A stretch of 13,928 bases of DNA from a virus (taxonomy: Duplodnaviria; Heunggongvirae; Uroviricota; Caudoviricetes), in the IMG/VR virus record IMGVR_UViG_2648501669_000011; one strand, written 5' to 3'. This document shows, one piece after another, positions 2 to 7,797 of the stretch. Under the pieces are notes generated by a model that worked only from the letters and a program-made list of their open reading frames with translations, made no database searches and had not been told where the DNA came from. The first letter of the stretch is position 1. Every line of letters begins with the position of its first letter. Position numbers and translations under genes: made by a program.

Positions 2-61
2 CTCGGTGTCTGTGACGGGAGGGATGAAATAGCCAGATGCCGCACCCAGGGCAGTAAATAA
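2..61 (+). CDS. possible 3' end of an upstream gene (partial, 5' end outside window)
   Basis: Frame open from the window start to TAA at 59-61, immediately followed by the intrinsic terminator at 68-107. Only 19 codons, so weak on its own. Confidence 0.25.
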   Translation, partial: LGVCDGRDEIARCRTQGSK

Positions 62-67
62 AAAAAC

Positions 68-107
68 AAAACCCCGGCTGCTGGAACAGTCCGGGGTTTT
101 GAGTTTT
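68..107 (+). terminator. Rho-independent terminator
   Basis: Perfect 10-bp inverted repeat AAAACCCCGG (68-77) / CCGGGGTTTT (91-100), extendable by CTG/CAG pairing, followed by TTTTGAGTTTT. An A-tract on the 5' side makes it potentially bidirectional. Confidence 0.6.
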
Positions 108-192
108 CACGTCAGAGAGGAAATTGTGAGTAGTGAGTACGGAGAAAATCCTCGTGGGAAAGTATAAAAGATTCTTTTTGAGGTTGTCCATT

Positions 193-306
193 ATGAAAGG
201 TATTGAAGTGGAAACTCCCGCGAGCCTTGATTTGACAAGGGCTGCGGCCTTTGCAATTTGCCTTGTGGCGGTCGCTGTTCTGATTTGGGCTGTGCGTTGG
301 TGGTGA
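193..306 (+). CDS. small hydrophobic peptide (37 aa from ATG 193; frame open back to GTG 154 or 133), single predicted transmembrane helix
   Basis: Translation MKGIEVETPASLDLTRAAAFAICLVAVAVLIWAVRWW has an 18-residue hydrophobic stretch and ends RWW. Its stop TGA (304-306) lies 1 nt before the ATG of the next ORF. GGAG at 141-144 could serve a GTG 154 start. Below the ORF-track size cutoff, so speculative. Confidence 0.3.
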   Translation: MKGIEVETPASLDLTRAAAFAICLVAVAVLIWAVRWW

Positions 307-307
307 T

Positions 308-484
308 ATGACGCGAAAACACTGGACACACAGAATGCCGCGAACGGCGGCGAAATGGGTAGCGATACTGGTGCCTTTTTTATTGGTGGGATGCGTCAGC
401 CTGGATAAGGCGCGCCAGCTTTTCGATACAGCTTCTCAGGTCTGCGAAATTGTTGATAGTGTCCGGCAGTGTCTGCAGAACTGA
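308..484 (+). CDS. small putative lipoprotein (58 aa precursor, about 29 aa mature)
   Basis: Translation MTRKHWTHRMPRTAAKWVAILVPFLLVGCVSLDKARQLFDTASQVCEIVDSVRQCLQN: basic n-region, hydrophobic core and an L-V-G-C lipobox (Cys codon 392-394). The mature part has two further Cys. Start is tightly coupled to the preceding ORF (TGATATG). Confidence 0.35.
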   Translation: MTRKHWTHRMPRTAAKWVAILVPFLLVGCVSLDKARQLFDTASQVCEIVDSVRQCLQN

Positions 485-658: not shown

Positions 659-1054
659 ATGGAAAAAACAGAAAACAAACCGATTGCAATTGGTGCTGAT
701 GCTGCTCCGTTTAAGTTTGAGTTGTCTCAACTGGTGGAGATGCGCATCAGTGATGAATGGGGTGAGGTTAAAGCCCGCGCGCAGTATGCGTATGGCGAAA
801 ACCAGTACTTGATCCACTACAAAGCAGCTGATGGCCGCGCCACGACGGAGTGGTTTGGTGAGTCAATGCTGGAAGCAACAGAAGATGATCGTCATCCTGG
901 TTGTCCGGTATTTGCCTGCATGAAATTGCCGGAAGGCGCAGTAGTTGAACTGCAGCCGGGTGAGATGTTCGTGATGACAGACATCATTGATGGTAAACCG
1001 CAGTATTCGCGTATTGAAATGAATGGTAAGAGTGCTCGCCTGATTCGTGAGTAA
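659..1054 (+). CDS. hypothetical protein, 131 aa, acidic, no predicted TM segment; possible accessory (moron) gene
   Basis: ORF-track frame 608-1054. AGGAG at 648-652 sits 6 nt before ATG 659 (ATG 656 is too close). Translation begins MEKTENKPIAIGADAAPFKF; stop TAA at 1052-1054. Lies between the left-edge small ORFs and the putative cos/terminase region. No family recognised. Confidence 0.6.
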   Translation: MEKTENKPIAIGADAAPFKFELSQLVEMRISDEWGEVKARAQYAYGENQYLIHYKAADGRATTEWFGESMLEATEDDRHPGCPVFACMKLPEGAVVELQPGEMFVMTDIIDGKPQYSRIEMNGKSARLIRE

Positions 1055-1901: not shown

Positions 1902-4015
1902 TGGGTTTTTCATCAGCCCGAAACCTTGGCAGGGACATATCTGCAGGATTTTCCCCACCACGTCGCATGCCGATTTCGGAGGCTGTTAAAAAATTCATGC
2001 GAGTTCCTAAGGGCGCGGGTAACTCAGTGCCATGGGATCCTGAACTGACGCCCTACATTATTGAACCTATGAACTGTTTGGCATCGCGTGAATACGATGC
2101 GGTGATTTTTGTTGGTCCTGCGCGAACAGGGAAGACCATCGGTCTGATCGATGGATGGGTTGTCTATACCATCGTCTGTGATCCTTCGGACATGCTCGTC
2201 GTGCAGATGACCGAAGATAAGGCTCGTGAGCATTCGAAAAAACGGCTCGACAGAACGTTCAGAAGCAGTACAGCGGTAAAGAAAAGAATGAGTCCACGTC
2301 GTAATGACAATAACGTCCATGATAAGACGTTCAAGGATGGCTCATTTCTTAAAATTGGTTGGCCCTCAGTCAATATTATGTCGTCGTCGGATTACCGGTT
2401 TGTTGCCTTAACCGATTACGACCGCTTTCCGGAGAATATCGACGGTGAAGGTGATGGTTTCTCCCTGGCTTCAAAACGTACCACCACATTTATGTCTGCA
2501 GGTATGACGCTGGTGGAGAGTTCCCCTGGACGTGAGATCACAAACAGCAAATGGCGCAGAACGTCACCGCATGAAGCCCCGCCCACCACGGGGATCCTTT
2601 CTCTATATAACCGTGGCGATCGTCGTCGCTGGTACTGGCCCTGCCCAGATTGTGGTGATTATTTCCAGCCATCTATGGAGGCTATGACGGGGTATCGTGA
2701 CAATCCTGATCCTGTAAAAGCCAGTGAAGCGGCTCATATATTATGCCCTCATTGTGGCAACCGAATCACCGCAGACATGAAACGTGAACTGAATGGTCGC
2801 GGCGTCTGGTTGCGTGAAGGTGAGCAGATTGACAGAGAAGGGAATGTTACCGGAACGCCACGTCATTCAAGGATAGCCAGCTTCTGGATGGAAGGCCCCG
2901 CTGCAGCCTATCAGACCTGGGCGCAACTGGTTTACAAACTACTGACTGCTGAGCAGGAATATGAAGCCACAGGCAGTGAGGAAACACTGAAGGCGGTGAT
3001 TAACACCGACTGGGGATTACCTTATTTGCCTCGTTCTGCCATGGAGTTGCGCAGTGCAGATGTCCTGATGCAGCGGGCTGAGGATTACGGTAAGCGCCTG
3101 GTACCGCCGAAAGTGCGTTTTCTTATTGCGGCTGTGGACGTGCAGGGCGGGAAGAACCGACGGTTTGTGGTGCAGATTATTGGCTATGGCGAGGATGGCG
3201 AACGCTGGCTGGTGGACCGTTATAACATCCGACAGTCATTGCGCTGCGATGAAAATGGCGAAGCATTACCTGTGCATCCCGGGGCTTATCCTGAAGACTG
3301 GCAGTTGCTGGTCACCGATGTACTGGAGAAAACGTATCCGCTCCAGTCCGATCCGGCCCGCAGAATGCCTGTACTGGCAATGGCGGTGGACAGTGGTGGT
3401 GAAGACGGGGTGACGGATAACGCCTATAAATTCTGGCGAAAATGTCGTCAGGATGGACTGGGGCGACGGGTTTTTCTGGTAAAGGGAGACAGCACGAAAC
3501 GCCAGAAAATTATCACCATCACACACCCGGATAATACCGGGCGAAGCGATCGCCGTGCGGATGCTCAGGGAAAGGTGCCGGTATATCTCCTGCAGACAGA
3601 CCTGCTGAAAGATCAACTAAGCAATAACCTGCAACGTGAAATGCCCGGACCGGGCTACATTCATTTTCCTGACTGGCTCGGGGAGTGGTTTTATGAAGAG
3701 TTGACCTATGAGGAACGCGGTGCTGACGGGAAATGGCGCAAGCCAGGAAAAGGGAATAACGAAGCATTTGACCTTTTTTGCTATGCCCATGCCGTCGCCA
3801 TTCTGCGTGGCTATGAAAAAATCCGTGACTGGAACAACCCTCCCCAGTGGGCAAGAGGGCAGAATGCTGACGCTGGGGCTTCAGCAGACGGACGTTCTTC
3901 CGGCACAGTGGACAAGAAAAACGTTGCCGGAAGAGATGAGCGGCAAAAAGCAGCATCGTCGGAAGCGTTATCCGGAAACTGGTTATCACTACCCCGAAAC
4001 GGAGGATGGTTGTGA
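1901..4015 (+). CDS. terminase large subunit (lambda gpA family)
   Basis: 704-aa ORF directly coupled to the small subunit, with GAGGAGGAA upstream. P-loop GPARTGKT (2114-2137) near residue 72-79, similar in position to the lambda gpA ATPase motif. CPDCG (2642-2656) and CPHCGN (2744-2761) form a CxxC-X29-CxxC zinc-ribbon-like motif. Size and order match gpA. Confidence 0.85.
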   Translation: MGFSSARNLGRDISAGFSPPRRMPISEAVKKFMRVPKGAGNSVPWDPELTPYIIEPMNCLASREYDAVIFVGPARTGKTIGLIDGWVVYTIVCDPSDMLVVQMTEDKAREHSKKRLDRTFRSSTAVKKRMSPRRNDNNVHDKTFKDGSFLKIGWPSVNIMSSSDYRFVALTDYDRFPENIDGEGDGFSLASKRTTTFMSAGMTLVESSPGREITNSKWRRTSPHEAPPTTGILSLYNRGDRRRWYWPCPDCGDYFQPSMEAMTGYRDNPDPVKASEAAHILCPHCGNRITADMKRELNGRGVWLREGEQIDREGNVTGTPRHSRIASFWMEGPAAAYQTWAQLVYKLLTAEQEYEATGSEETLKAVINTDWGLPYLPRSAMELRSADVLMQRAEDYGKRLVPPKVRFLIAAVDVQGGKNRRFVVQIIGYGEDGERWLVDRYNIRQSLRCDENGEALPVHPGAYPEDWQLLVTDVLEKTYPLQSDPARRMPVLAMAVDSGGEDGVTDNAYKFWRKCRQDGLGRRVFLVKGDSTKRQKIITITHPDNTGRSDRRADAQGKVPVYLLQTDLLKDQLSNNLQREMPGPGYIHFPDWLGEWFYEELTYEERGADGKWRKPGKGNNEAFDLFCYAHAVAILRGYEKIRDWNNPPQWARGQNADAGASADGRSSGTVDKKNVAGRDERQKAASSEALSGNWLSLPRNGGWL

Positions 4016-4230
4016 AAAAAGATGAGATTTTCCAGATGCTGGTTATCGTGCGTCAGGCATACAGGGATTCCCTGGATGGTAAAAGTGTGTCTTTTACCGG
4101 GGTGAATGGCAGGGCGATCACCAACCATGATCCTGTTGCATTGCGCAGGGAACTTGAATACTGGGAAAAACGCTGGGCGGCGGCCTGCCAGCCCACAAGG
4201 AAACCGTACAAACTCGCCCGTTTCTCCTGA
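4012..4230 (+). CDS. head-tail joining / head completion protein (lambda gpW-like)
   Basis: 72-aa ORF between terminase and portal, as lambda W. GGAGG at 4001-4005 sits 6 nt before GTG 4012 (ATG 4006 has no spacer). The start overlaps the terminase stop (GTGA). Similarity to gpW is by size, position and loose pattern only. Confidence 0.55.
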   Translation: MKKDEIFQMLVIVRQAYRDSLDGKSVSFTGVNGRAITNHDPVALRRELEYWEKRWAAACQPTRKPYKLARFS

Positions 4231-4238
4231 GGTTTTTT

Positions 4239-5750
4239 ATGGGTTTTTTTGATAAAGCACTTGGTGCAATTGCGCCAGGGTGGGCAGTTTCGCGCGCCAG
4301 AAACAAAATGCTGCTGAGAGCTTATGAGGCGGCGCAGCCTTCACGCCTGAATAAAGCCCGGCGTGAGAGTCGTTCTGCCGATACAGCAGTTTTTTCTGCC
4401 GGCACTTCGTTAAGGGAGCAGGCCAGGGCGCTGGATGAAGATCATGATATCGTGATTGGTCTGCTGGATAAGCTGGAAGAGCGGGTTATTGGTGCGCAGG
4501 GGATCCAGGTTGAACCACAACCACTGAGAAGCGATGGCACCCTGCATGAATTGCTGGCAGAGCAGATCTCGGCATTGTGGTCTGAATGGTCTGTTCGCCC
4601 TGAGGTCACGGGGATGTTCACTCGCCCGGAGGCCGAACGGATGGCATTGCGATCTGCTTTGCGTGATGGCGAGATGTTCGTACAACTGGTGCGTGGTCCT
4701 GTCGCCGGTCTGAATCATTCCACTGTGGTGCCATTATCACTGGAACTTCTCGAAGCAGATTTTGTTCCGGTCAGTCTGAACACGAACGCGGGTCAGCAAG
4801 TCCGCCAGGGCATTATTCTTAACAACTGGGGGCGGCCTGTAGGGTATCGGGTTTATAAATACCATCCTGCAAATATGCGTGGATTCAGCGCCGATCTCAA
4901 AACTGTTCACGCAGACAACATGCTTCATCTGGCGATGCGGAAACGGCTTCATCAGGTGAGAGGTGTCAGCCTGTTACATGGTGTGATTCGCCGGATTGCT
5001 GATCTGAAAGATTACGAAGAATCAGAGCGTGTGGCTGCCCGTATTGCTGCCGCGCTGGGTTTCTACATTAAGCGTGGTGATGCCGCCAGCTTTCCGACGG
5101 ATAACGACTGGACACCCACAGAACAAAAACCCCGGTACTTTGATATTTCGCCGGGCATGATTTTTGACGAACTGGCCCCCGGTGAAGATCTGGGGATGGT
5201 GGAGTCGAATCGTCCGAATGTTCATCTTTATGAATTCCGGAACGGACAGTTGCGTGCTGTGGCTGCCGGAACCCGTGGCAGTTATTCCAGTATTGCCCGT
5301 GACTATAACGGCTCCTACAGTTCGCAGCGTCAGGAGCTGGTGGAAGGTTACGAAGGCTACGGGGTTTTACAGCAGTGGTTTGTCGGTCAGTACAGCCGCC
5401 CGGTGTACCGGGCATGGCTGGAGCAGGCGATACCTTTTCTTGAAATTCCTCCTGATGTGGATATGTCCACGCTTTTCAATGCCACTTATCTTGGCCCGGT
5501 GATGCCGTGGATTGATCCGGTGAAGGAGGCTGCAGCATGGCGGGCCATTCTTCGCGGTGGTGCCGGGACGGAGGCCGAGTGGATACGTGCCCGTGGGCAG
5601 TCACCGCAGGAGGTCAAACGTCAGCGACTGCGTGAAACTGAATTTAACCGGGAAAACGGGCTGGTGTTCGATTCTGACGCCGCTAACGATAAAGGAGTGA
5701 TCCCTGATGCAGCAAATGATAAACCCGCGTCTTCGCGGGACGATGATTAA
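4239..5750 (+). CDS. portal protein (lambda gpB family)
   Basis: 503-aa ORF in the canonical position after terminase and W; GAGG 6 nt upstream of ATG 4239. Size and composition fit lambda-type portals; acidic C-terminus (SSRDDD). Confidence 0.8.
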   Translation: MGFFDKALGAIAPGWAVSRARNKMLLRAYEAAQPSRLNKARRESRSADTAVFSAGTSLREQARALDEDHDIVIGLLDKLEERVIGAQGIQVEPQPLRSDGTLHELLAEQISALWSEWSVRPEVTGMFTRPEAERMALRSALRDGEMFVQLVRGPVAGLNHSTVVPLSLELLEADFVPVSLNTNAGQQVRQGIILNNWGRPVGYRVYKYHPANMRGFSADLKTVHADNMLHLAMRKRLHQVRGVSLLHGVIRRIADLKDYEESERVAARIAAALGFYIKRGDAASFPTDNDWTPTEQKPRYFDISPGMIFDELAPGEDLGMVESNRPNVHLYEFRNGQLRAVAAGTRGSYSSIARDYNGSYSSQRQELVEGYEGYGVLQQWFVGQYSRPVYRAWLEQAIPFLEIPPDVDMSTLFNATYLGPVMPWIDPVKEAAAWRAILRGGAGTEAEWIRARGQSPQEVKRQRLRETEFNRENGLVFDSDAANDKGVIPDAANDKPASSRDDD

Positions 5751-7797
5751 TCCCCGCGCCAGCCTTGCGGGGGTGGATGCCGCTAATGGTCAGTGCTGGT
5801 ATGAAATCCGTGCACAGACTGCCGGGCGGGTGGAAATTTACCTCTATGACGTGATTGGCGGATGGGGCATCACCGCGCAGCAGTTTATTGCTGACTGTAA
5901 GGATGCGGGGGTGTTTGAGGCCAGCGCTATTGATCTGCATATCCACAGCCCGGGCGGTGATGTGATGCAGGGGTTTGCCATCTTTAACACGCTGTCACGG
6001 CTGAAAGCGAAGGTGGATATCTGGGTGGATGGTGTTGCAGCCAGCATGGCCTCCATGATTGTCTGCCTGCCTGGCGCCACAGTGCATATGCCTGAAAATT
6101 CCTGGCTGATGATACACAAGCCGTGGGGCGGGATCGCCGGTGATTCCGATGATATGCGTGATTATGCTGACTGGCTGGATCGCAACGAGGCGCTGATGCT
6201 GTCAGCCTACATGAATAAAACCGGACTCGGGCAGGAGGAGCTGGAAGCCATGCTGAAAGCAGAAACCTGGCTGAACGGTGCTGAAGCTGTGGAAAAAGGC
6301 TTCGCTGATACGCTTGAACCTGAATTACAGGCTGCGGCCTGTGTGAACCAAAATAAACTGAAGGATTACCATAATATGCCAGAACAGATTAACGCGCTTT
6401 TTGCTCCACGTGCAGAAACGACAAACGGACAGCCGCAGGAGCCGAAAGCAACCCCGCAAAATGCGCAACAGATCGCTGCTCAGCAGGCACCATCAACCGG
6501 AAATGTGGATATCAGCGCAATTGCTTCGCAGGTTCAGCAACAACTGATGGCAGCCAATGCGGAACGTGTGCAGGCTGTAACCGCAGTTTTTGCCTCTTTC
6601 CCGTCTTATGCCGCACTGAAAGCGGAGTGTCTGAACGACATGACCTGTACGGAAGCACAGGCCCGTGAAAAACTGTTGCAGGCGCTGGCAGCCGGAACGA
6701 CACCAAGTGCAGGCCCGGGCGCTGTTCATATTCATGCCGGGAACGGTAATCTGGTCGGCGATTCCATTCGTGCGGCTGTGATGGCACGCGCCGGATATGC
6801 CGAAGCAGAAAAAGATAATGCTTATAACGGTTTTACACTGCGCGAGCTGGCGCGTGCTTCGCTGGTTGATCGCGGTATCGGTATCTCCGGTCATTCCGCA
6901 CCGATGGCGATGGTGGGGCTGGCATTTACTCACAGCAGCAGCGATTTCGGCAATATCCTGATGGATGTGGCTCATAAAGCTGCGTTGCAGGGCTGGGATG
7001 ATGCCAGCGAAAATTTTGACAAATGGACCCGCAAGGGAACGCTGACTGATTTTAAAACCGCGCATCGTGTCGGGCTGGAAACTTTCCCGACGCTACGAAA
7101 AGTATTGCCGGGGGCTGAATATAAATATGTGACCCTGAAAGATCGTGGCGAACCGATTGCACTGGCGACTTATGGCGAATTGTTCAGCATTGATCGCCAG
7201 ACCATCATCAATGATGACCTGGATATGCTGACCCGTATTCCGATGGCAATGGGGGCGGCAGCGCGGACTACCGTGGGGGATCTGGTCTGGGCCGTGCTGA
7301 CCAGCAATCCGAAAATGTCGGATGGCAAACCGCTGTTCCATGCAGATCATGGCAACCTGGTGACTGCCGATTTGTCTATTGAGGGGCTGGATTCCGGGCG
7401 TAAAGCCATGCTGCTCCAGAAATCGGGTGACCGTCGCCTGAACATTCGTCCTGCTTTTATGTTGACGCCTGTTGCCATTGAGTCGCGTGCCAATCAGTTG
7501 ATTAAGTCTGCCAGCGTGCCTGGTGCAGATGCGAACAGCGGCATTATTAACCCGATTCAGAATTTTGCCACGGTTCTGTCAGAGGCCCGTCTTGATGACA
7601 GCAGCCCGACGGATTATTACCTGGTGGCAGCGCAGGGGCGTGACACGATTGAAGTGGCTTACCTCGACGGTATTGATACGCCGTATCTGGAGCAGCAACA
7701 GGGCTTTACGGTTGATGGTGCAGCATTCAAGGTGCGCATTGATGCCGGAGTGGCACCGCTTGACTGGCGTGGCATGGTCAAAGTGAAAAAACAATAA
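5707..7797 (+). CDS. three-part head gene: ClpP-like prohead protease, Gln/Ala-rich scaffold-like linker, C-terminal major capsid domain (Gifsy-2 type)
   Basis: 696-aa ORF. N-terminal third carries ClpP catalytic signatures: AASMAS (Ser codon 6043-6045, compare E. coli ClpP AASMG) and MIHKPWGG (His codon 6115-6117, compare MIHQPLGG). Residues about 224-330 are low-complexity Q/A/P-rich. No separate capsid gene of about 340 aa follows, so the C-terminal 370 aa is inferred to be the capsid protein. Start is ambiguous (ATG 5707 with GGAG at 5694-5697; in-frame ATGs at 5716 and 5743). Confidence 0.7.
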   Translation: MQQMINPRLRGTMINPRASLAGVDAANGQCWYEIRAQTAGRVEIYLYDVIGGWGITAQQFIADCKDAGVFEASAIDLHIHSPGGDVMQGFAIFNTLSRLKAKVDIWVDGVAASMASMIVCLPGATVHMPENSWLMIHKPWGGIAGDSDDMRDYADWLDRNEALMLSAYMNKTGLGQEELEAMLKAETWLNGAEAVEKGFADTLEPELQAAACVNQNKLKDYHNMPEQINALFAPRAETTNGQPQEPKATPQNAQQIAAQQAPSTGNVDISAIASQVQQQLMAANAERVQAVTAVFASFPSYAALKAECLNDMTCTEAQAREKLLQALAAGTTPSAGPGAVHIHAGNGNLVGDSIRAAVMARAGYAEAEKDNAYNGFTLRELARASLVDRGIGISGHSAPMAMVGLAFTHSSSDFGNILMDVAHKAALQGWDDASENFDKWTRKGTLTDFKTAHRVGLETFPTLRKVLPGAEYKYVTLKDRGEPIALATYGELFSIDRQTIINDDLDMLTRIPMAMGAAARTTVGDLVWAVLTSNPKMSDGKPLFHADHGNLVTADLSIEGLDSGRKAMLLQKSGDRRLNIRPAFMLTPVAIESRANQLIKSASVPGADANSGIINPIQNFATVLSEARLDDSSPTDYYLVAAQGRDTIEVAYLDGIDTPYLEQQQGFTVDGAAFKVRIDAGVAPLDWRGMVKVKKQ

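Follow-up and report, generated by a model that had tools for sequence, protein, structure and literature searches.

The left edge of the IMG/VR virus record IMGVR_UViG_2648501669_000011 (Caudoviricetes; a stretch of 13,928 nt hereafter called the window) carries two small open reading frames (ORFs) on the plus strand, one for a membrane peptide that ends at position 306 and one for a lipoprotein at positions 308-484. The question raised by this locus is whether the two form a functional pair, as suggested by the original prediction made from the letters of the window, and whether either of them stands in for the spanins of a phage lysis cassette. We estimate at roughly 55% the probability of the following answer: the two genes are independent late-operon modules, and the lipoprotein gene closes a P27-type lysis cassette, its product targeting the outer membrane without the help of a phage-encoded inner-membrane spanin (i-spanin).

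The lipoprotein gene encodes a 58-aa prelipoprotein, MTRKHWTHRMPRTAAKWVAILVPFLLVGC followed by VSLDKARQLFDTASQVCEIVDSVRQCLQN. The ratio of nonsynonymous to synonymous polymorphism (pN/pS), computed on 51 unique 183-nt sequences, is 0.196 in this frame versus 0.96 and 1.94 in the other two; it lies between 0.15 and 0.23 in every part of the ORF and is 0.21 (versus 1.0 and 1.8) in codons 2-9 alone. All 87 gene copies examined from spanin-less cassettes, which were drawn from IMG/VR, GTDB genomes, phage records, and E. coli chromosomes, are intact. We assign the gene start to ATG 308, since this first ATG never varies among the 65 unique sequences compared, codons 2-9 are under selection, and the internal Met codon at position 335 is replaced by ACG or ATA in five of the 65. 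The shorter RefSeq model starting at ATG 335 (51 aa) was rejected because the internal Met is not conserved and the codons upstream of it are under selection. The expectation that small genes in this slot are mishandled by annotation proved correct: RefSeq records of E. coli list both genes as hypothetical and begin the lipoprotein at the internal ATG, the phiP27 record (locus L004) has L32 in the wrong frame for the lipoprotein gene (3953-4108 and 3996-4184), and in the record of vB_Apl-pPE4 (locus L180, approximately 5080-5260) the gene is not called at all.

The encoded protein has the features that the original prediction ascribed to it, namely a lipobox L-V-G-C, a 29-aa mature part, and two extra cysteines, as judged by a rule-based call. 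The lipobox is formed by L26-V27-G28-C29, with Val and not Asp at position +2; the mature part comprises 30 residues with the lipid-bearing Cys (29 after it) and has further Cys residues at 46 and 55 (+18 and +27). The signal peptide consists of an unusually conserved basic n-region (RKHWTHRMPR..KW) and a 12-residue uncharged h-region, and the C-terminus is hydrophilic (VRQCLQN). The G28-C29 pair is invariant family-wide, and all three cysteines are invariant across 31 diverse members. The mature part, with a net charge of -1, shows helical periodicity, with the hydrophobic moment peaking at 100-110 degrees (a peak reached by 164 of 10,000 shuffled sequences), and in a continuous helix the Cys residues at +18 and +27 point to opposite sides, which would favor intermolecular disulfide bonds. 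A sequence search of the PDB returned designed helical repeat proteins only. The protein matches phrog_7528 over its full length (E 6.5e-35, positions 1-58 of the 60-position profile), a family without functional annotation; it has no Pfam family at E<=1 and nothing in NCBIfam or PADLOC. As a separate observation, two residues present in the h-region of nearly all family members (Ala-Leu; KW-AL-VAILV) are absent from the window protein (KW-VAILV, window positions 356-361), a deletion shared with few database entries (P0065 and P0085).

The lipoprotein family is small and restricted to prophages of Enterobacterales. Among 1.84 billion proteins it forms 137 clusters at 90% identity and approximately 20 real representatives at 50% identity, and a scan of genome contigs returned three loci only, so that the family is a narrow one. 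Within these limits, it is conserved across Escherichia, Salmonella, Citrobacter, Cronobacter, and Lelliottia, in cassettes of differing types. A census of 5426 complete E. coli genomes found the lipoprotein gene in 358 (~7%) and the peptide in 867 (~16%).

The genomic context of the lipoprotein gene links it to lysis, in agreement with the lysis association proposed in the original prediction. An endolysin gene lies upstream in 81 of the 83 loci found via the lipoprotein; in 37 of them (36 with an M15 endolysin, one with GH108), the gap does not exceed 20 nt and nothing stands between the two genes. In the remaining loci, the gap is filled by one to three small single-pass transmembrane (TM) peptides, by the gene for a 93-aa hypothetical protein (hyp93), by an antisense 90-aa gene, or by KilA-N/Bro-type genes. 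In complete E. coli genomes and in the phages phiP27, phiSTEC1575-Stx2k, and vB_Apl-pPE4, the gene order is Phage_holin_8, Phage_holin_3_7, M15 peptidase endolysin, optional inserts, lipoprotein, and packaging genes. More distant family members retain the arrangement, in part with different components. In particular, the Mu-like phage P0124 has holin_8, holin_3_7, and GH108 genes followed by the lipoprotein with a 4-nt overlap, the lambdoid locus P0134 has Q, holin_3_1, M15, and then the lipoprotein, P0138 has GH108 and then the lipoprotein, and Lelliottia locus L009 has another holin and a GH108 gene whose end is overlapped by the lipoprotein gene. In the tight cassettes, where the lipoprotein starts 14 nt after the endolysin or overlaps it, the gene has no promoter or terminator of its own; similarly, a consensus scan of the window detected no plus-strand promoter specific to the two ORFs. 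The lipoprotein is also independent of the tail type, being found with contractile tails (the window and phiP27), in a Mu-like phage, and in a Dit-bearing locus. The P27-type lysis cassette is thus composed of one or more holins, an M15 or GH108 endolysin, and the lipoprotein in the position of lambda Rz/Rz1.

At the junction of the two ORFs in the window, the stop codon of the peptide (TGA 304-306) and the lipoprotein start (ATG 308) are separated by T307, exactly as the original prediction had it. The junction, TGGTGGTGA-T-ATG (296-310), places the peptide stop and a GGTGAT sequence resembling a Shine-Dalgarno (SD) motif directly before the lipoprotein start, and for this reason the two ORFs may be translationally coupled. 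The same junction occurs in 32 loci as TGGTGATATG and in eight loci as TGGTGACATG, and it is also found ahead of Rz in loci L005, L170, and L171, so that the 3' end of the peptide gene carries a GGTGAT ribosome-binding site for whichever gene comes next, lipoprotein or Rz. The claim that the two genes form a coupled functional pair is not supported by their distribution. The lipoprotein follows the peptide in 78 of the 80 closest peptide loci. However, the peptide is missing altogether from 37 of the 81 lipoprotein loci in which an endolysin was seen, and in these the lipoprotein starts no more than 20 nt past the endolysin stop. Moreover, the peptide is found between the lysozyme R gene and a complete Rz/Rz1, with an identical RWW-TGA-N-ATG junction, in two IMG/VR contigs, in the phages GER2 and PhiR5_1, and in prophages of O157:H7 ATCC 43894 and O104:H4 2009EL-2050; L170 and L171 are among the loci with the peptide ahead of a bona fide Rz/Rz1. 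Because many cassettes lack the peptide and because it also precedes complete Rz/Rz1 genes, the peptide and the lipoprotein are two independent modules and not a dedicated pair. What looks like a pair in the window is a portable terminator-plus-peptide insert beside the gene that fills the spanin slot.

The peptide ORF as originally delineated (193-306) encodes 37 aa, MKGIEVETPASLDLTRAAAFAICLVAVAVLIWAVRWW, and both this ORF and its RWW end stand, although the start is probably located further upstream. An acidic linker joins the basic N-terminal part of the peptide (KYKRFFLRLSIMK) to a hydrophobic stretch toward its C-terminus, AAAFAI(C)LVAVAVLIWAV, in which one Arg is nearly invariant. The last 21 codons have a pN/pS of 0.218, versus 1.11 and 2.97 in the other frames, and the ORF is therefore a real gene under purifying selection; for both ORFs, the ratio is close to 0.2 against 1-3 in the alternative frames. 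The homology between the peptides of the window type and those found in the Rz context starts exactly at codon 154. Variants of this codon are limited to GTG, ATG, and TTG, an SD-like motif is located 8-9 nt upstream of it in both contexts, and the 13 codons preceding ATG 193 (154-192) show synonymous and conservative changes. The 50-aa form scores 81.6 bits against positions 1-54 of phrog_4493, versus 56.5 bits for the 37-aa form, and aligns over residues 1-50 with the 56-position profile (E 5.5e-23). Hence the peptide (154-306) probably starts at GTG 154 and is 50 aa long, with ATG 193 as a possible additional start. A start at GTG 133 (57 aa) was rejected, since upstream of 154 all variation is non-synonymous or beyond the homology. 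The PHROG families of the peptide, phrog_4493 and phrog_1115, have no functional annotation, and searches of Pfam, NCBIfam, and PADLOC with the peptide gave no match; profile searches have therefore placed both proteins in PHROG families over their full length and in none of these other collections.

Two further observations concern the peptide. Codon 23 of the shorter, 37-aa form (259-261) reads TGC (Cys) in the window but CGC (Arg) in 117 of 118 other copies. This substitution, which changes AFAIRLVAV to AFAICLVAV inside the hydrophobic segment, could represent a functional variant or a loss-of-function change. In addition, runs of two to four differing small single-TM peptides of 28-60 aa stand between the endolysin and the spanin-slot gene in some loci (L005, 2115-2561; L018, 5149-5619; L040 and L078, 6660-7000). 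They belong to phrog_1115, to phrog_4906, or, in one case, to no PHROG, occur in Rz-type and lipoprotein-type cassettes alike, and include paralogues of the window peptide.

The strong terminator reported at the left edge of the window (68-107) was confirmed, and its boundaries were slightly extended. The stem occupies positions 67-101 (AAAACCCCGGCUGC...GUCCGGGGUUUU) and is followed by UUUUGAGUUUU up to approximately position 110. This G+C-rich hairpin of 14 bp, flanked by A-runs on the 5' side and U-runs on the 3' side, has a minimum free energy of -25.7 kcal/mol (z = -4.26; none of 200 shuffled sequences folds equally well) and was also picked up by a simple terminator scan. Since an A-run precedes the stem in addition to the U-run behind it, termination could be bidirectional. 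The hairpin is part of the peptide module: in the lipoprotein context, 97 of 106 peptide copies have the same hairpin ahead of them, and in the Rz context (L170 and L171) a terminator hairpin of different sequence is found at the same place. A search of Rfam gave below-threshold matches only, which overlap the terminator and leader region at window positions 60-193 (sar RNA, 23.8 bits against a gathering threshold of 43; rnk leader, 27.1 against 55), most likely chance resemblances to the hairpin.

If the lipoprotein were the outer-membrane subunit (o-spanin) of a two-component spanin, an i-spanin should accompany it, and we searched for such a partner in several ways. The tblastn searches with Rz/Rz1 proteins of the lambda and SfII types found no match in the flanks of the lipoprotein loci. 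When every frame of 39 full-length 14-kb loci was scanned for lipoboxes, no other lipoprotein was detected in the lysis region, apart from Bor-like genes on the opposite strand in some loci. The scan of the same loci, over approximately 3.5 kb on either side, for ORFs with one N-terminal TM domain and a tail of at least 45 aa returned holins and wrong-frame junk only. An i-spanin overlapping the lipoprotein gene is not encoded either, as the other two frames, with the pN/pS values of 0.96 and 1.94 given above, contain stops. The peptide itself has a C-terminal TM segment, a basic N-terminus, and no periplasmic domain, and is therefore very unlikely to be an i-spanin; the original prediction was right both in considering it too short for an Rz-type i-spanin and in describing the cassette as a non-standard one.

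The complete phiP27 genome has no annotated spanin. Nevertheless, phiP27 is listed in the supplements of Kongari et al. 2018 (PMC6139136) as having a two-component spanin of the 'separated' type, with an o-spanin at 20706-20861 whose 30-aa mature part is predicted to be 83% helical and an i-spanin assigned to a 64-aa ORF at 20348-20542. The listed o-spanin belongs to the window lipoprotein family; a homologue of our lipoprotein had thus been catalogued as an o-spanin, a listing that the original prediction had missed. The 64-aa ORF has a TTG start, lies antisense to a 90-aa ORF, and is absent from all other cassettes. The antisense 90-aa ORF is conserved in L055 at 46% identity, and the plus-strand ORF there is only 36 aa long. 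We therefore rejected this i-spanin as an antisense, non-conserved ORF, and the catalogue entry looks like an antisense artefact. The 90-aa ORF itself encodes a helical protein on the minus strand (3655-3927 in the phiP27 locus L004 and 3042-3317 in L055) and is unannotated in phiP27. The same survey reported 31 genomes in which a lipoprotein lacks a linked i-spanin, leaving the mechanism open and noting that unlinked partners were not findable by its criteria, and approximately 13% of phages of Gram-negative hosts without a recognizable spanin (PMC6139136).

In the lineage with the order R-peptide-Rz/Rz1, the lipoprotein gene persists only in decayed form, broken by one frameshift and two in-frame stops, approximately 750 nt downstream of the intact Rz/Rz1. 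These pseudogenes are unannotated (L171, 3422-3615; L172, phage GER2, 3501-3668; L179, O104:H4 2009EL-2050, 2501-2684), and the decay of the lipoprotein beside Rz/Rz1 would fit functional equivalence or redundancy with spanins. Forty-one E. coli records match the lipoprotein gene at just 60-80% identity and may hold similar decayed copies.

Comparison with known systems shows where the lipoprotein belongs and where it departs. Alignment of its profile with the LysC family (PF23793) by hhalign gives a probability of 96.6% and E 4.7e-10, restricted to the signal peptide, where SfII/SfV Rz1 has a counterpart of the conserved n-region RKHWTHRMPR..KW. Homology of the mature domain to LysC/Rz1, suggested by eye from the pattern SLD...AS..C...D..R, was rejected, as the comparison of mature part with mature part yields E 0.28. 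Judging from these alignments, the signal peptide is descended from o-spanins of the LysC/Rz1 type and the mature part is unrelated to them; the lipoprotein is an orphan of the o-spanin kind with a novel mature domain. Like the o-spanins lambda Rz1 and P2/SfII-type LysC, it is a predicted outer-membrane lipoprotein encoded by the last element of the cassette after the endolysin, with a homologous LysC signal peptide and conserved periplasmic Cys residues. However, the mature part of o-spanins is Pro-rich and 40-75 aa long, whereas that of the window lipoprotein has 29 residues, is helical, and contains no Pro; and, unlike in two-component spanins, no i-spanin is embedded, overlapping, adjacent, or located within approximately 3.5 kb. 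The unimolecular spanin (u-spanin) gp11 of T1 likewise fills the spanin slot with one gene whose product begins with a lipoprotein signal, but the window lipoprotein lacks the C-terminal TM domain of gp11 and is approximately 100 residues too short to bridge the periplasm.

Closer functional parallels may be found outside the spanins. The disruptin of phage phiKT (gp28; bioRxiv 10.1101/515445) is a small amphipathic helical peptide that replaces spanins in a spanin-less coliphage cassette, as is proposed here for the lipoprotein, although gp28 is cationic and non-lipidated, whereas our protein has a net charge of -1, a lipoprotein signal, and conserved cysteines. Colicin lysis proteins (BRP) and entericidin B are of similar size, with precursors of approximately 45-60 aa and mature lipopeptides of approximately 28-32 aa, and colicin lysis genes are also the last genes of damage-induced operons. 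Colicin lysis proteins activate OMPLA (PMC9517006); small bacteriolytic lipoproteins cause envelope permeabilization or quasi-lysis, and entericidins have been proposed to be lytic lipopeptide toxins (PMC9517006, PMC7296081). The lipoprotein is homologous neither to disruptin nor to these two groups: there is no match to the Pfam family Lysis_col at E<=1, no Pfam or NCBIfam match places it with entericidins A and B, with which it shares only the general design of a small amphipathic helical lipoprotein, and its gene resides in a phage late cassette. By analogy, the function of the lipoprotein would be closer to that of colicin lysis proteins, entericidin B, and phiKT disruptin than to that of a membrane-fusing spanin complex.

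The following sequence of events is proposed. The lipoprotein gene would be expressed from a Q-dependent late transcript that reads through the terminator at 67-110. The lipoprotein would be lipidated at C29 and, as it has no Asp at position +2, is predicted to be sorted by the Lol pathway to the inner leaflet of the outer membrane. The endolysin would first remove the cell wall, and the lipoprotein would then act on the outer membrane, alone or via a host factor, its lipid-anchored amphipathic helix destabilizing the membrane, possibly or even probably as disulfide-linked oligomers. That it acts without a phage partner is suggested by the absence of an accompanying i-spanin and by its length, which is too short to span the periplasm. 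The terminator-plus-peptide module is a portable insert that lands at the junction of the endolysin and the spanin slot. The peptide would be a single-pass inner-membrane protein with its N-terminus inside, most likely modulating the timing of lysis or the energization of the membrane; its features point most likely to a lysis modulator. 'Lysis accessory' was the closest of the roles suggested in the original prediction, and it suits the peptide better than the lipoprotein. We tentatively raise the possibility, on which we would not insist, that stand-alone outer-membrane disruptors of this kind constitute a further class of phage lysis proteins beside two-component spanins, u-spanins, and disruptin, derived from an o-spanin that lost its i-spanin and acquired a different mature domain.

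Several points weigh against the lipoprotein acting on the outer membrane by itself. The surveyed loci are mostly closely related E. coli prophages, and the counts given above consist of non-independent events; the pseudogene evidence comes from one Stx-phage-like lineage with copies 97% identical. The lipoprotein call follows from the lipobox rule, the basic n-region, the 12-residue uncharged h-region, and the family-wide invariance of G28-C29. The AlphaFold2 model is one long helix of low confidence (pLDDT 63), uninformative past secondary structure. A 29-residue helix with a net charge of -1 is not an obvious membrane disruptor, disruptin being cationic. Spanins are dispensable in some conditions, and the cassette may thus be spanin-less, with the lipoprotein serving another late role; there may also be an inner-membrane partner that is unlinked or host-encoded. 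Finally, a literature search by protein accession found no citing paper, and queries for cassettes with no i-spanin returned nothing relevant.

Among the alternatives, a non-lysis envelope function, late or expressed in the lysogen (superinfection exclusion, protection of progeny from debris, Bor-like serum resistance, or vesicle docking as in some entericidin homologues), is rather unlikely. The phage lipoproteins Bor, Cor, and Llp provide a precedent for such roles. A small lipoprotein of the entericidin family was non-lytic and acted in the docking of outer-membrane vesicles (PMC7296081), and the anionic mature domain would be compatible with a role of this kind. On the other hand, in tight cassettes the gene starts 14 nt after the endolysin or overlaps it and lacks a promoter or terminator of its own, it decays where Rz/Rz1 is present, and it matches no PADLOC defence family. 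Receptor-blocking proteins normally track the receptor-binding module, whereas the lipoprotein is tied to the endolysin and accompanies unrelated tail modules, so that the superinfection exclusion considered in the original prediction fits poorly. We regard as improbable an ordinary two-component system in which the lipoprotein is a genuine o-spanin and the i-spanin has gone unrecognized, being encoded at an unlinked phage locus or by the host, or hidden among the 'holins'. The LysC/Rz1-homologous signal peptide and the position in the spanin slot speak for it, as do the invariant periplasmic cysteines, which resemble the disulfide-forming ones of o-spanins, and the 31 genomes whose lipoprotein has no i-spanin linked to it (PMC6139136). 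But neither the 39 loci nor the phiP27 annotation offers a candidate partner, the lipoprotein coexists with three holin sets and two endolysin types and hence with no constant phage membrane protein, and a mature part of 29 residues would require a partner spanning almost the entire periplasm.

The two remaining explanations have very little in their favor. That the peptide, or the 64-aa ORF of phiP27, is an i-spanin forming a minimal two-component spanin with the lipoprotein is suggested by the 1-nt spacing of stop and start, by the 78 of 80 peptide loci that continue with the lipoprotein, and by the published phiP27 assignment (PMC6139136); it is hard to credit given that 37 of 81 cassettes do without the peptide, that the peptide precedes complete Rz/Rz1 genes and has essentially no periplasmic domain, and that the phiP27 ORF is antisense and absent elsewhere. 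Equally implausible is a functionless relic of an o-spanin left by deletion of the i-spanin and linker, which would explain the LysC-like signal peptide, the short remainder, and the existence of pseudogene copies, but not a pN/pS of 0.15-0.23, 87 intact copies out of 87 in spanin-less cassettes, conservation in five genera, or three invariant Cys residues in the mature domain. An orphan lipoprotein acting at the outer membrane without a phage i-spanin is the interpretation that we favor.

The surroundings of the two genes in the window complete the description of the locus. The 3' end of hyp93 (phrog_33497) is located at 1-60 on the plus strand, its translation ending ...EIARCRTQGSK*, the same as in L001 (5761-6042); as an optional insert, hyp93 separates the endolysin gene from the peptide gene in only part of the related loci. 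Behind the lipoprotein gene, a non-coding linker (496-557) is 82-84% identical to the sequence just 3' of the lysozyme R gene in many Stx1a/Stx2a phages, the match in phage P13374 starting with the final 2 nt of lys. The linker holds a small hairpin at 524-537, scored as a minus-strand terminator-like site (537-524), and may be a shared module boundary or a recombination linker. The genes downstream of the lipoprotein in the related loci encode soluble proteins (p130, HNH, or terminase). In the window, the first of them (659-1054, plus strand) encodes a 131-aa hypothetical protein (phrog_1935, L33 of phiP27) without a TM segment or signal peptide, a frequent yet inconstant neighbor confined to Enterobacterales prophages and bearing a conserved HPGCPVFA motif; its AlphaFold2 model is all-beta but unusable (pLDDT 48), and the protein is probably not part of the lysis function. 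Then follow a DUF1441 small terminase, a GpA terminase, a lambda-type portal, a protease-capsid protein, the sheath, and the tube. The protease-capsid protein (5707-7797) is a single 696-aa ORF, a fusion of a ClpP-type protease with a major capsid domain, and is followed by a cement protein and then by the contractile-tail genes; the prophage combines a lambda-type packaging and head module with a myovirus-type tail. In one locus group, a Bor-like lipoprotein gene is located on the minus strand between the GH108 endolysin and the peptide (L035, 6485-6826).

The P27-type cassette offers a tractable E. coli case for the question, left open in PMC6139136, of how the outer membrane is breached without spanins: the only candidate outer-membrane factor of a common, conserved cassette is a tiny lipoprotein unable to span the periplasm, and this cassette is found in ~7% of complete E. 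coli genomes and in the Stx2e phage phiP27. The portable terminator-plus-peptide module, which precedes Rz in prophages of O157:H7 and O104:H4, brings with it an unstudied small membrane protein. If the lipoprotein does not act alone, the label 'o-spanin' in spanin catalogues can mislead, and the i-spanin call in phiP27 looks wrong in either case. If it does, it would define a new way of disrupting the outer membrane, and so small a lytic module might find use in biotechnology.

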